A stretch of DNA of 38,865 nt from Polyangiaceae bacterium (GCA_036271175.1 DATBBD010000516.1:1-38865); one strand, 5' to 3'. Positions 14,811-18,506 are shown, numbered from the stretch's first letter. Made by a program: numbers and translations. The notes: generated by a model from the letters alone, not told the origin.

Positions 14811-17800
14811 GTGAATATTTCGACGAAGTTGGGGCTATTTTCGTGCTTGTTGGGGTTCGTCGTCGTCGCGTGCGACGGCGCGAAGGGTCGGCCGCGCGTC
14901 ACCTCCGTTCATGACGACGCGGGCGTTCCGAGCGCTGAAAACGAAGACGGCGAAGCGCCGGTTTCGAGCGTCGGACTCGGCGCGGACGCGGGCGTCGTCG
15001 GGTCCGGCGTCGCCGGAGATCCGTGCGTGTTCAGCGCCGATTGTACGGCCGGCGTACACTGCGACCTCGGAGAATGCGCTGCGGATTGCACAGCGAGCCT
15101 TCCCTGCGCCGGCGGGAAGACGTGTTCGAGTCGCGGACGTTGTCTCGGCACGGGTGAATCGGACGACGACCCTCCGCCGGTCACGACGCGGACCGGCACC
15201 GTACACGCCGACCCCGCGAGCGCCGCGCTAACCGATGACGACACGTCGCTCGTGATTCACCTGACGACGGATTCGAAGGACACGGTGCGCTACCGCGTCG
15301 AGCTCGACGCGCCGTATCTGTCGATCGACCAGGACCGTGGACAGTTCCAATACGAAACGACCCTGGCGTTGAAAGTCGACGGATCGAGTCATTCTGGTCA
15401 GGACGTGGCGGGCTCCGTGCACATCTTCACGACCCTCGGCGACGTGCTGGTGGAAGCTCCGATGAAGGTCGGGCTCACCGGAACGTATCAAGGCGTGATG
15501 AGTTATGACGGGAGCGGATCGACGGGAACGCCGTCGGCGCCGCTCGGGACGTCACAGCTCGTCCTCGACGTGTTCGAGCACAACGGCGCGATGACCGTTC
15601 AGGCCGATCCGGCGCGTTCGCTCCTGTTCCCGGCAATCGGTGGGAACGCCGCGACGGGTCGCGGCTCGTTCACGTTGACCGACGGCGCGCAGTTTTCGCT
15701 CGAGCAAGTGCTCCCGGCGAACTTCGGCGGTGACGACAATCCGTTTCGAAGGTCGATCGGACGCGAGGTGCGATTCTCGGTGAAGCCCGGCGCAAACGGC
15801 CTCCTCGCGGGGACGTTCGAGGAGACGATCTACGGACTCTTCGCCGCGCCGACGACGCTCACCGGCTCGGTCACCTTCGAACATCGGACGCTCGACCCAG
15901 AGCCGAGTCTGGACTTCGCGGTCCCACCGGCTCCGAAAATGCCGACGGTCGACGCGACCGTCGTTCCCGACGTCTCATCGGTATTTCCATCGTTTTCCGG
16001 CGATGCTTGGGAGCTCGAGGCGATTGCGGCCGCGGGCGGTTGTTCGGACACGCTGAGCTGCGCGAACGCGATGGACCAGCACTTTTATCAGCCGCTCGTG
16101 GGCGCGCTCTCGGGGACGTCGACGGTGACGAGCCCCGACCCGATCGGCGACATCGCGAGCGAGTGCCAGACCGAGCTCGCTGCGATGGCGATCATCGACC
16201 CGGTGAAGTGCGCGCAGATCGCGCCGATCGCTTCGACACTCGCCACGGTACAGAAAGAACACCTGGGCTCCGAAGCCGACGACGCGTTCGCGACCGCGTT
16301 CGCGCACACGCTCGACCCGGCGCTGCTCGTCGCCGACGACGGCGTCGTTCGGGCGATCAAAGGCTCGTTCACCGACGGGTTTCAGTCGGAGCTCGGCGCG
16401 CTCGCGACAGCGCGCGCGGTGCTCACGCCGTCGCTGGTCTGGGTGCTGACGCCGTCGTTCCTCGAGCGACTCAAAGGGACGCCGACCACGCCGACCGCCG
16501 CAGGGGATGCTCCGCCGAGCGTCGTTGCGGCACGGAGCCTCGCGCGCACGTTCTATTCACTGTCCACCCTCGACGGCGAAATCGCGCGCATCGCCGCGAC
16601 CGATCGCAACGGGACGGAAGCTGATCGACTCGTGGCAGCGCAGACCAAGGGCGTGATCGTCGAGCTGGAGGCCGCGACGTTGGGCGGCCTCCTCGCGGCG
16701 TGGCCTGCGGCTCCGCCGGACCTCGGCGCCGAGTTTACCGACGTGCTCACGCCGATGGACGACGGGTTCAAGGCGCTTCAGGACGGCGCGCTCACTTACG
16801 GCGTCGCCAATGGGTACGTGCCGTTCCTCTACGCGCCCGGCGGCAAAGCGACGAACTTCGAGCAAGTGATGGACGCGCTCACGCCGTTCTTGGATCGCGC
16901 TTCGAACGACGAGATGGCATTCGTTTCTGCGAGTCGCACGTACGAACAGAACGAAGACGCGTTCAAGACCGAGCTCGAGGGAGTGCAATCGAACGACGAC
17001 GACCGACTGCACGAGCTCTGCGGCGACGACTTCGACTTGAATCAGGTCGACTGGTCGACGTGCGGCGCGAACTCCGAGGGCGACGTGGGACGGCGCATGT
17101 CCGATGCCGAGCTCGCGAACCTCCGCGTCGTGGCGGCAGAGCAGCGTATGGAAGGGATGGGTCAGAAGATCCAGATCGAATGGGACAAGCTGCAGCAAGT
17201 GAAAGAGGTGCGCGAAGGTACGATTCGATTCACCGAGGACACCGGCGCGCAGCTCGACACCGTCGAGTGGTCCGAGGCCGCGATCAACGCTACCGAGAAA
17301 TTCCTGGACGTTGCGGCCAATGCGAGTGTGTTCAACGGCGGAGCGCCGCTCGGTGAAGCGGCGATCTCCGCCGAGTTCGAGCTGGCCAAAGGCGGGCTCG
17401 AAGTGCAGCGGCAGGATCTGCAAAATGCGCAAGACGTCGAGGTTCAGGCGGCCAACTCGCAGGTCGAGGTGATCGACGAAATGGCGACGATCAAGGGGCT
17501 CATGGTCGACATGGCCGAGCTCAAGGTGGAGACGCAGGAAGAGGTGATCGGCGTGCTTCAGGCCGACATCGACGTCAGAAATTCGCTGTCGGACGCGCGC
17601 CATCTGTTCGCCGATCGGACCAGCACGCTCGCCCGCATCGACGACAGCCCGCTCCGCGACCCGAGCTATCGGCTCCTGGAAGACCGCGACGCGCTCGCCG
17701 CTATGCGGTCGCGCGCCGATCTGCAGAAGTGGCTCTACTTGGCGGGCCGCGCACTCGAATACCAGCTGAATCAGGACTTCGACGACGCGCTCGGCGAGGC

Positions 17801-18506
17801 CGTCCTCAACGTGTTCGACGTCCAGGAAGCGAATCGATTGAAGGATTGCCTCAGCGCGACGTTCAGCGAAGCGTCCCTGGCGCTCGGCAGCACGAACGCT
17901 TACACGACCGAAATGTCGGTGCGCAAGCTGCTCGGCATCGGCGGCTCGATCACCGACGGCGTGACCGGTGAGCAGCTCTCCGAGGCCGACCAGTTTCGAC
18001 GCCTGTTGCTCGAAAATCAGAACCTCGACGGCAATGGCGGCGTGGGGATTCAGTTTTCGTCGAGCCTCGATCCGAACAACGGGCTCTGGCCGTCCACGCG
18101 TTGCGACGACCGCATCACGACGGTCGAGGCCGAGCTCGTCGGAGATTTTCTCGGGGACAACGACGCCGAGGTCGATCTCACGCTCGACGGCGGCGGCGTC
18201 CTGCGCGGGTGCGACGGTGAACGTCTCGTCAACTGGTCCACGTCGGGCAACGCCAGCATCCAGGCCGGCGTCAATTCGTACGGGACGGCGCCCGCGCCGA
18301 ACGACTCGCTACACGGGCTCTCGGTCGCGAGCGCGAAGTGGACGGTGAGCATTCCGGGGCCGTCGGCGGCGCCGAGCAACGCAGACGTCGATCTGTCGAA
18401 GCTCGACGACGTCGTGATCCGGGTCCACCACGAGGCGCGACCGATCCGGACCACGACGTCCGCGGTTTCCGTCGCGTGCCTCGCCGACGTGGGCGCGGGG
18501 CACTAA
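14811..18506 (+). CDS. Large lipoprotein (1231 aa) with a Cys-rich N-module, a long helical region and a TcA-like C-terminal domain (hypothesis)
   Basis: GTG start 12 nt after the upstream stop, preceded by AAAGGAGCGGGGA. Lipobox GFVVVAC. Cys-rich module CVFSADCTAGVHCDLGECAADCTASLPCAGGKTCSSRGRC. A heptad-like helical region spans about 17090-17700. The C-terminal stretch DLQKWLYLAGRALEYQLN ... DRITTVEAELVG ... WTVSIPG ... LSKLDDVVIRVHHEA is reminiscent of TcA C-termini. Confidence 0.75.
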   Translation: MNISTKLGLFSCLLGFVVVACDGAKGRPRVTSVHDDAGVPSAENEDGEAPVSSVGLGADAGVVGSGVAGDPCVFSADCTAGVHCDLGECAADCTASLPCAGGKTCSSRGRCLGTGESDDDPPPVTTRTGTVHADPASAALTDDDTSLVIHLTTDSKDTVRYRVELDAPYLSIDQDRGQFQYETTLALKVDGSSHSGQDVAGSVHIFTTLGDVLVEAPMKVGLTGTYQGVMSYDGSGSTGTPSAPLGTSQLVLDVFEHNGAMTVQADPARSLLFPAIGGNAATGRGSFTLTDGAQFSLEQVLPANFGGDDNPFRRSIGREVRFSVKPGANGLLAGTFEETIYGLFAAPTTLTGSVTFEHRTLDPEPSLDFAVPPAPKMPTVDATVVPDVSSVFPSFSGDAWELEAIAAAGGCSDTLSCANAMDQHFYQPLVGALSGTSTVTSPDPIGDIASECQTELAAMAIIDPVKCAQIAPIASTLATVQKEHLGSEADDAFATAFAHTLDPALLVADDGVVRAIKGSFTDGFQSELGALATARAVLTPSLVWVLTPSFLERLKGTPTTPTAAGDAPPSVVAARSLARTFYSLSTLDGEIARIAATDRNGTEADRLVAAQTKGVIVELEAATLGGLLAAWPAAPPDLGAEFTDVLTPMDDGFKALQDGALTYGVANGYVPFLYAPGGKATNFEQVMDALTPFLDRASNDEMAFVSASRTYEQNEDAFKTELEGVQSNDDDRLHELCGDDFDLNQVDWSTCGANSEGDVGRRMSDAELANLRVVAAEQRMEGMGQKIQIEWDKLQQVKEVREGTIRFTEDTGAQLDTVEWSEAAINATEKFLDVAANASVFNGGAPLGEAAISAEFELAKGGLEVQRQDLQNAQDVEVQAANSQVEVIDEMATIKGLMVDMAELKVETQEEVIGVLQADIDVRNSLSDARHLFADRTSTLARIDDSPLRDPSYRLLEDRDALAAMRSRADLQKWLYLAGRALEYQLNQDFDDALGEAVLNVFDVQEANRLKDCLSATFSEASLALGSTNAYTTEMSVRKLLGIGGSITDGVTGEQLSEADQFRRLLLENQNLDGNGGVGIQFSSSLDPNNGLWPSTRCDDRITTVEAELVGDFLGDNDAEVDLTLDGGGVLRGCDGERLVNWSTSGNASIQAGVNSYGTAPAPNDSLHGLSVASAKWTVSIPGPSAAPSNADVDLSKLDDVVIRVHHEARPIRTTTSAVSVACLADVGAGH

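Follow-up and report, generated by a model that had tools for sequence, protein, structure and literature searches.

What is the role of a large lipoprotein encoded near a Tc-toxin-like gene in a bacterium of the Polyangiaceae? The question is raised by a 38,865-nucleotide stretch of DNA (GCA_036271175.1, DATBBD010000516.1:1-38865; hereafter the window), in which positions 14811-18506 hold an open reading frame (ORF) for a protein of 1231 amino acids (aa); all features given below lie on the + strand unless marked otherwise. Tc/ABC toxins attract study both for their insecticidal action and as programmable devices for protein injection; the TcA subunits characterised so far come from insect and human pathogens and are very large (~2500 aa, 1.4 MDa as pentamers). 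A preliminary description of the window had proposed that the C-terminal 470 aa of the lipoprotein look like a TcA pore helix plus TcB-binding module, which on a lipobox-bearing protein of half the usual size would make an undescribed minimal A component. Our analysis leads us to read the protein as the translocator, or A-type component, of a divergent system in Myxococcota that resembles the Tc/ABC toxins, with a C-terminal stretch of ~550 aa homologous to the core of TcA, and we put the probability of this reading at roughly 0.8. The unannotated family to which it belongs (hereafter A-like) probably serves the polymorphic toxins of bacteria as a compact partner for delivery that had not been described before.

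The C-terminal module and its relation to TcA

The A-like ORF begins with MNISTKLGLFSCLLGFVVVAC, a lipoprotein signal peptide (14811-14873) that ends in the lipobox VVAC. The lipobox cysteine, Cys21, is invariant in an alignment of 14 family members, all of which carry a lipoprotein-type signal and lipobox (14/14) and none of which has Lys at position +2 (0/14), in agreement with the lipoprotein nature assigned to the 1231-aa product at the outset. An initial homologue search retrieved 13 relatives of ~1220 aa with 38-51 % identity, none with a Pfam annotation and all labelled solely as "hypothetical protein". When 1.84 billion representatives were searched exhaustively with a profile, 1161 clusters came up at E ≤ 1e-3, 218 of them at E ≤ 1e-30, and 111 of the 150 best-scoring proteins fell within 1100-1450 aa, the range that we took for full-length members of this family of ~1200-aa proteins. 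Throughout this large family the best conserved part is the C-terminal region that starts at aa 761 (nucleotide 17090).

To compare this region with TcA we built a C-terminal family profile from 111 representatives and aligned it by hhalign with eight canonical TcA C-termini, from Burkholderia, Mycetohabitans, Rhodococcus, Vibrio, Serratia, Bacillus thuringiensis, Pantoea and Nitrosospira. The reference was the Burkholderia protein, a plasmid-encoded TcA of 2770 aa that lies beside a fused TcBC and matches the Pfam models VRP1, ABC_toxin_N, Neuraminidase and TcA_TcB_BD (the latter at aa 2313-2601, E 4.5e-104). The local alignment covered 232 columns and placed aa 945-1214 of the target on aa 2347-2606 of the Burkholderia TcA with a probability (Prob) of 96.3 % and E 1.5e-9, and the global alignment extended over 481 columns (Prob 97.9 %, E 2.9e-12); when either side was reversed as a control, E rose to 0.5 and 0.72. 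The C-terminal β-sandwich by itself aligned with aa 2452-2605 of the Burkholderia TcA, inside Pfam TcA_TcB_BD (Prob 90 %, E 1.6e-6), while the neck helices by themselves reached E 0.034 at the colinear position of TcA.

All the strings that had been quoted from the protein are present and stand in the stated order: those of the long amphipathic helical stretch, EQRMEGMGQKIQIEWDKLQQVKEVREG (aa 777-803) and EVIDEMATIKGLMVDMAELKVETQEEVIGVLQADIDVRN (aa 886-924), then DLQKWLYLAGRALEYQLNQDF (aa 970-990), TEMSVRKLLGI (aa 1033-1043), CDDRITTVEAELVGDFLGDNDAEVDLTLDGGGVL (aa 1098-1131), SAKWTVSIPG (aa 1174-1183) and LSKLDDVVIRVHHEARPI (aa 1195-1212). The TcA motifs named in the preliminary description were likewise borne out, as hhalign pairs their counterparts in the A-like protein with the canonical TcA C-termini: YLAGRALEYQLN with AAQQCYQFETN, DDRITTVEAELVGDF with YARQIKSVSVTIPAILGP, and LDDVVIRVHHEA with LTDVVIRLRYTA.

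The predicted fold pointed in the same direction. An AlphaFold2 (AF2) model of aa 62-1231 (predicted local distance difference test, pLDDT, 71.5) shows, in order, a disordered Cys-rich start, β-sandwiches, a helical domain, a long helical hairpin, further helices up to aa 1025 and a β-sandwich. In a Foldseek search of this model against the Protein Data Bank (PDB) the first 20 ranks were occupied exclusively by TcA chains (XptA1, TcdA1, XptA2, TcdA4, YenA2 and TcaA-TcaB) with E values from 3e-13 to 1.5e-8. A second model, restricted to the 556 residues of aa 676-1231 (pLDDT 78), again retrieved only TcA at ranks 1-21 (E 3.6e-14 to 1e-7, query TM-score 0.38-0.49), in alignments of ~580 columns that cover the whole model. 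Rank 22 was the isolated TcB-binding fragment of TcdA1 (6l7i_A, E 8.9e-6, target TM-score 0.50), and beyond it only generic coiled coils appeared, at E > 2e-3.

Three elements can be delimited in the module. The first is a long antiparallel hairpin (17079-17642; aa 757-836 and 845-944), the putative pore-forming domain, whose helices of 80 and 100 residues correspond to 696-775 and 784-883 in the numbering of the first model and to 82-161 and 170-269 in that of the second. At its end lies the tip (17319-17378; aa 837-856, NASVFNGGAPLGEAAISAEF), a putative membrane-inserting loop. Among the 21-residue stretches in the C-terminal 556 aa, the tip is family-wide the one with the highest hydrophobicity (Kyte-Doolittle 1.16) and the lowest charge (0.02), and in the global alignment it falls on the tip loop of canonical TcA, which is likewise the hydrophobic maximum of the TcA C-termini; its pLDDT is low in both models. 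The second element comprises the neck helices (17661-17885; aa 951-1025), within the local hhalign alignment that starts at aa 945 and including the first of the paired motifs. The third is the C-terminal β-sandwich (17895-18443; aa 1029-1211), a homologue of the TcB-binding domain according to both hhalign and Foldseek. The homology of the neck and the TcB-binding β-sandwich to TcA is thus supported by sequence profiles and by fold, and the likeness of the pore-like hairpin to that of TcA is supported by its predicted fold and its colinearity.

TcBC genes, partner lipoprotein and toxin tails

A third line of evidence comes from the neighbourhood of the gene. We collected 58 reference loci that contain a member of the family, 44 of them with at least 1.5 kb of downstream sequence and 38 with upstream sequence. 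A TcBC gene starts directly downstream and on the same strand in 33/44 loci, often less than 150 bp away or overlapping, and is present somewhere in the locus in 36/44. The homologues are thus strongly linked to SpvB/RHS genes, and neither of the outcomes that the preliminary description had named as refuting it, a lack of TcA similarity in profile and structure searches or homologues never linked to such genes, was observed. The linked TcBC proteins are fused, measure ~1940-2200 aa and carry SpvB, FG-GAP propeller, TcdB_midN and RHS domains. Upstream of the A-like gene lies a second lipoprotein, here called the partner, in 31/38 loci. The signals differ in type: lipoboxes are found on the A-like proteins and the partners, and ordinary signal peptides on the TcBC proteins.

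At loci other than the window the TcBC tails are polymorphic-toxin modules (Ntox8, HNH, PT-HINT plus LHH, or PT-HINT plus unknown domains), and a small, variable ORF follows the gene at -3 to ~+20 nt, in some cases with DUF2750, DUF4262 or DUF4259. Judged by its gene order, the pairing of a TcBC with a small downstream ORF is a putative toxin-immunity layout.

The usual order is partner, A-like gene, TcBC and small ORF. In the window the order is TcBC, a 97-aa ORF, partner and A-like gene, and this TcBC-first arrangement recurs in one reference locus (L045). The first part of the TcB-TcC-like gene (5319-9971) encodes 1550 aa with a signal-peptide-like N-terminus, SpvB, FG-GAP propeller, TcdB_toxin_midN and RHS repeats according to Pfam. 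It is followed in the same frame by a 569-aa ORF (10089-11798) which by translation comprises RHS repeats, a repeat/hydrophobic insert, the Rhs-associated core (TIGR03696 Rhs_assc_core, E 2.9e-13) and a tail of ~250 aa. This toxin tail (aa ~320-569 of the second ORF) is Gly/Ala-rich and hydrophobic and had no Pfam match. The 97-aa ORF (11795-12088), a candidate immunity gene, begins with TTG, overlaps the TcC stop by 4 nt and has no family assignment. Within the RHS region a 63-nt tandem repeat of 2.5 copies (10176-10330) encodes (DGTAYRDG)-like units, and it is followed by ~100 hydrophobic, Arg-rich residues (~10350-10650) before the Rhs-associated core.

The partner of the window (13044-14798, 584 aa) probably starts near 13110 and carries the lipobox GTVAC. 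It combines a DUF1565/β-helix-type N-terminus (Pfam DUF1565, E 3.8e-5) with a long GGxGG-rich C-terminal half and an invariant DDDFxDxNCDGIDGD motif, and it shares 39-48 % identity with the upstream genes of the homologues. A search of the partner profile against the PDB gave only a non-significant match of the β-helix start to a xylosidase (E 0.098).

We also considered a conserved third gene, represented by neighbours of ~515-570 aa in the window (10089-11798) and in two reference loci (L005, 13706-15250; L002, 6405-8090), and rejected it, as these are mutually non-homologous; the one in the window is the C-terminal part of TcBC. The L005 ORF, which lies between the A-like gene and TcBC, is matched in part (to nt 14440) by partner queries in tblastn. 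It may be a second partner-like copy, and a partner-like gene in this position may explain the loci with a gap of ~1.7-2.1 kb between the A-like gene and TcBC.

Weighing the translocator reading

Several results count against an A-type translocator, and each of them is considered here together with the alternative that it favours. The first are the direct sequence searches. Pfam hmmscan, proposed as the primary check, detected no TcA_TcB_BD (PF18276) in the target (E ≤ 1), in its 10 homologues (11 family C-termini at E ≤ 10) or in 7 distant members (E ≤ 1), and phmmer and profile hmmsearch against all PDB sequences, run with the protein, the full-length family profile and the C-terminal profile, returned nothing. 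Therefore no TcA Pfam model or PDB sequence was matched directly even at lenient thresholds, which places the similarity below the sensitivity of single-profile searches; the identity to TcA is only ~11-13 %. Taken alone, the negative hmmscan would have seemed to dispose of the idea. An NCBIfam scan of the target likewise gave no match.

These negatives raise the question of whether the resemblance to TcA is convergent or spurious, a product of generic long coiled coils and a common β-sandwich in an unrelated surface adhesin. Besides the lack of direct hidden Markov model matches, such an explanation could draw on the low global TM-scores of the full model and on the coiled-coil matches that the long helices attract (Foldseek ranks 23-50). 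It is opposed by top Foldseek matches that are exclusively TcA and 9-11 orders of magnitude better than the coiled coils, by an hhalign comparison in which the β-sandwich suffices for significance and the reversed controls stay clean, by the coincidence of the aligned region with Pfam TcA_TcB_BD and by the tight operon linkage to TcB-TcC. We regard it as already largely refuted and give it next to no credence.

A second group of adverse results concerns the pore. The helical hairpin alone did not reach significance in hhalign (E 0.099), so we state its homology to TcA at the level of the fold only. Thus, of the module as originally proposed, the TcB-binding β-sandwich was upheld by profile and by fold, but the pore hairpin by fold and not by profile. 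The tip of the window protein contains two acidic residues, E849 and E855, and the AF2 models were built on just 11 sequences (predicted TM-score 0.46).

A third group concerns the N-terminal ~700 aa. In hhalign they gave E 0.4-0.7 against the Burkholderia TcA in full length and against aligned TcA middle regions, and Pfam hmmscan of the target matched neither VRP1, nor ABC_toxin_N, nor the neuraminidase-like domain (PF18413). A TcA shell in the N-terminal half was rejected as a candidate for want of profile similarity, and we do not claim one. In the AF2 model and the alignment, a loop of only ~19 residues, bracketed by the invariant C737 and C751, joins the helical domain to the hairpin. With no long linker apparent, a syringe-like transition from prepore to pore may not exist.

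The last two groups make room for an A-like protein that acts as a docking site or anchor, holding TcBC at the envelope or vesicles of the producer through its TcB-binding-like domain, with its helices as a stalk, and forming no pore. The toxin would then enter by something else, for example the partner, outer-membrane exchange or uptake by the target cell. The lipid-anchored N-terminus fits such a tether, as do the absence of a detectable TcA shell, neuraminidase-like lock or long linker, the hairpin without sequence-level similarity to the TcA pore domain and a tip that is only moderately hydrophobic and, in the window protein, partly acidic. A plain tether, however, would not need a module that Foldseek aligns with TcA over all 556 aa, beyond the β-sandwich, nor does it account for the conservation of a ~180-residue antiparallel hairpin, colinear with the TcA channel, whose tip is uncharged and hydrophobic family-wide. 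We therefore consider docking without a pore unlikely.

The signals on the three proteins bear on a further alternative, an export channel of the producer, in which a periplasm-facing A-like protein would insert its hairpin into its own outer membrane and a periplasmic TcBC would push its toxin out of the cell, either straight into the surroundings or into a cell in contact with it. In its favour, all three components carry Sec or lipoprotein signals, unlike canonical Tc toxins that are released by lysis (PMC10847048 for YenTc), and Zhang et al. (2012; PMC3482391) describe a separate export route for toxins with a signal peptide, SpvB, propeller and RHS, with no partner identified in the passages considered here. 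Against it, both the N-terminal half, with its β-sandwich and Cys-rich modules, and the β-helix partner have more the look of modules for binding outside the cell. Moreover, myxobacterial lipoproteins can also be surface-exposed or packed in vesicles. An export channel in the producer thus appears very improbable.

The remaining adverse points come from the loci themselves. Where flanking sequence is available, about one locus in four lacks a TcBC within 10 kb. In the window, a TAA at 9969-9971 interrupts the frame of what would be a TcB-TcC fusion of ~2160 aa, with RHS repeats on both sides of the stop (..VANVDGSS*QNGYGDDG..). The gene could be split or a pseudogene, or the stop could stem from an error of assembly, so this locus may be decaying or misassembled. 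Finally, since the partner lipoprotein is conserved, the A function may take more than a single polypeptide. With this caveat, the suggestion of an undescribed minimal A component is supported.

Weighing these points, we retain the A-type translocator, in which the A-like protein supplies the cocoon-docking domain and, according to the models, probably the channel; we infer its oligomerisation, pore formation, translocation, location and target. Going by their signal sequences, the A-like protein, the β-helix lipoprotein partner and the fused TcBC cocoon would all be exported by Sec. A lipid anchor would hold the A-like protein, probably in the outer membrane, at the cell surface or on vesicles; the protein would oligomerise, as a pentamer if it follows TcA. 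Its C-terminal domain would bind the TcBC cocoon, the β-sandwich docking onto the β-propeller of TcB-TcC; the hairpin tips would insert into the target membrane, and the C-terminal toxin of TcBC, released by autoproteolysis, would be threaded through the channel. Shielding and/or receptor binding may be tasks of the N-terminal half and the partner lipoprotein, which would stand in for the large TcA shell. The linked toxins are of the nuclease type and a small variable ORF comes after each of them, so that they are probably aimed at other bacteria, in competition or predation, and not at insects. The complete picture, a compact, Sec-exported, lipid-anchored Tc injection machine with which Myxococcota deliver nuclease-type toxins into other bacteria, is a tentative proposal that we rate at somewhat less than even odds.

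If true, the machine would be the first translocator of the Tc type known to act on bacteria, its A component would be the smallest on record, and the "TcdB/TcaC" polymorphic toxins would gain their missing partner for delivery. The more than 1000 clusters of ~1200-aa proteins, which would keep only the channel and the cocoon-docking core, would define the minimal conserved translocation module, and that core could serve as an engineering scaffold much smaller than TcA. It would point to a Tc-like weapon between bacteria, equipped with immunity genes, in the predatory and social Myxococcota, and would extend this class of toxins beyond animal hosts. It also offers a testable answer to how the signal-peptide SpvB-RHS polymorphic toxins are delivered, which Zhang et al. 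(2012) set apart as a separate "TcdB/TcaC" route.

Known systems and other features of the locus

The closest known counterparts are TcA subunits such as TcdA1 of P. luminescens, XptA1/XptA2 of X. nematophila and TcdA4 of M. morganii, together with YenA2 and TcaB, which are the C-terminal halves of split TcAs. The A-like protein shares with them the same C-terminal order of a hairpin with hydrophobic tip, neck helices and a TcB-binding β-sandwich, the latter ending in both cases in an L-x-D-V-V-[IL]-[RK]-h motif, and its gene likewise adjoins genes for a SpvB/propeller/RHS cocoon. In size it comes close to YenA2 and TcaB, which also have an upstream partner gene. Their partner, of the YenA1/TcaA type, is a helical shell half, whereas here it is a β-helix/Gly-rich lipoprotein. 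The A-like protein has ~1200 aa, where a single TcA, or a split pair counted together, has 2100-2800 aa, and is thus half the size of the described A components. It differs further in lacking matches to the four Pfam models that all recognise the Burkholderia TcA and in an N-terminal half unrelated by sequence. The Tc toxin of Yersinia entomophaga, YenTc, reaches the outside through cell lysis (PMC10847048), whereas the A-like protein bears a lipoprotein signal. The predicted Sec export, lipid anchoring and immunity genes set the system apart from the characterised insecticidal Tc toxins.

Type 3 ABC toxins, proposed to be ancestral, consist of a single TcA without receptor-binding domains (RBDs) and a fused TcBC (Low et al., 2025; PMC12705794). 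Their TcAs, which are also without CBDs, were placed with those of Types 1 and 2 on a tree built from a TcA alignment (PMC12705794), and are therefore alignable with canonical TcAs, whereas in the A-like protein the alignment with TcA is confined to the C-terminal ~550 aa. The Burkholderia TcA with its fused TcBC would correspond to a Type 3-like arrangement. The A-like system resembles Type 3 in its fused TcBC (~1940-2200 aa), in the absence of recognisable PTC3-type RBDs and in an effectively two-gene A + BC core, and departs from it in an A component that is half-size, lipidated and Myxococcota-restricted, in the extra lipoprotein partner and in its antibacterial-type toxin-immunity cassettes.

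The linked TcBC proteins fit exactly the TcdB/TcaC class of Zhang et al. (2012; PMC3482391): signal peptide, SpvB, integrin-like β-propeller, RHS, optional PT-HINT, variable toxin and immunity gene. There, toxins with the signal peptide-SpvB-propeller-RHS architecture are assigned to a separate "TcdB/TcaC export pathway", with δ-proteobacteria among its lineages, and the class is defined by the toxin protein alone, no TcA-like partner being named in the passages considered here; the A-like lipoproteins would be that partner in Myxococcota. The bacterial teneurin-like proteins, proposed to act in bacterial warfare, are also comparable, as Myxococcota-enriched, lipoprotein-targeted (SEC/SPII) YD-shell toxins with immunity genes (PMC13018210). 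In them it is the shell protein that carries the lipid, and they have no known machinery for delivery (PMC13018210), whereas here a separate lipoprotein with a putative TcA-like channel and docking module stands beside a SpvB/propeller cocoon. Song et al. (2021; PMC7861908) assigned 96.4 % of TcC proteins to Proteobacteria and 3.2 % to Firmicutes, the proteobacterial ones being 82.8 % γ and 13.3 % β. In a literature search of incomplete coverage we found no description of a short or lipidated TcA, or of Tc toxins in Myxococcota.

Among the reference genomes the family is nearly confined to metagenome-assembled genomes (MAGs) of Myxococcota (Polyangiaceae, Polyangiales, Sorangium and Kofleriaceae), and a genome often holds multiple paralogues. 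Examples of such repeated A-like/TcBC cassettes are found on contig JBBRRP010000003.1 (L017 and L022) and on contigs of the MAGs CAZUZY01 and DASTPP01, and two sets can lie within ~16 kb on a single contig. The multiplicity of cassettes per genome suggests a diversification of toxin cassettes. One member with 29 % identity and a TcBC downstream lies in a MAG labelled "uncultured Spirochaetaceae" (L042, CAYFQV010000133.1), which represents either horizontal transfer or mis-binning.

Three features can be outlined in the N-terminal ~700 aa. A Cys-rich module with eight invariant cysteines (15024-15143; aa 72-111, C72...C111) gives weak DUF7107/Dickkopf-like matches in distant family members. Five loci (L066-L070), from Bradymonadales/Bradymonadia and two Myxococcales MAGs, match the family only in this module (aa ~72-165), which would thus also be found in protein contexts besides the A-like family. 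Next come β-sandwich domains of unassigned type (15201-15893; aa ~131-361), predicted from AF2 strands at 70-300 in the trimmed numbering; the sole Pfam match of the target, a sub-threshold BACON_2 (E 0.035), falls in the N-terminal part. An α-helical domain (15972-17021; aa ~388-737, AF2 helices 327-676 in the trimmed numbering) is a possible analogue of the shell.

Further genes surround the system in the window. A GH6 cellulase (3053-4759, +) lies upstream of TcBC, a trypsin-like serine protease is encoded directly downstream of the A-like gene on the opposite strand (18599-19570, -), and two large ORFs had no Pfam match (26674-29496, -, 940 aa; 35540-38251, -, 903 aa). An RCC1-repeat (WD40_RLD) protein is encoded at a distance of a few kb in the window (24664-26667, +) and again in the unrelated locus L005 (22462-23681), by coincidence or by linkage to the system. 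Lastly, in the canonical Tc locus used as a control, on the Nitrosospira plasmid NZ_AP024516.1 (L072), a gene annotated as encapsulin (24291-25214) lies between the TcBC fusion and TcA.

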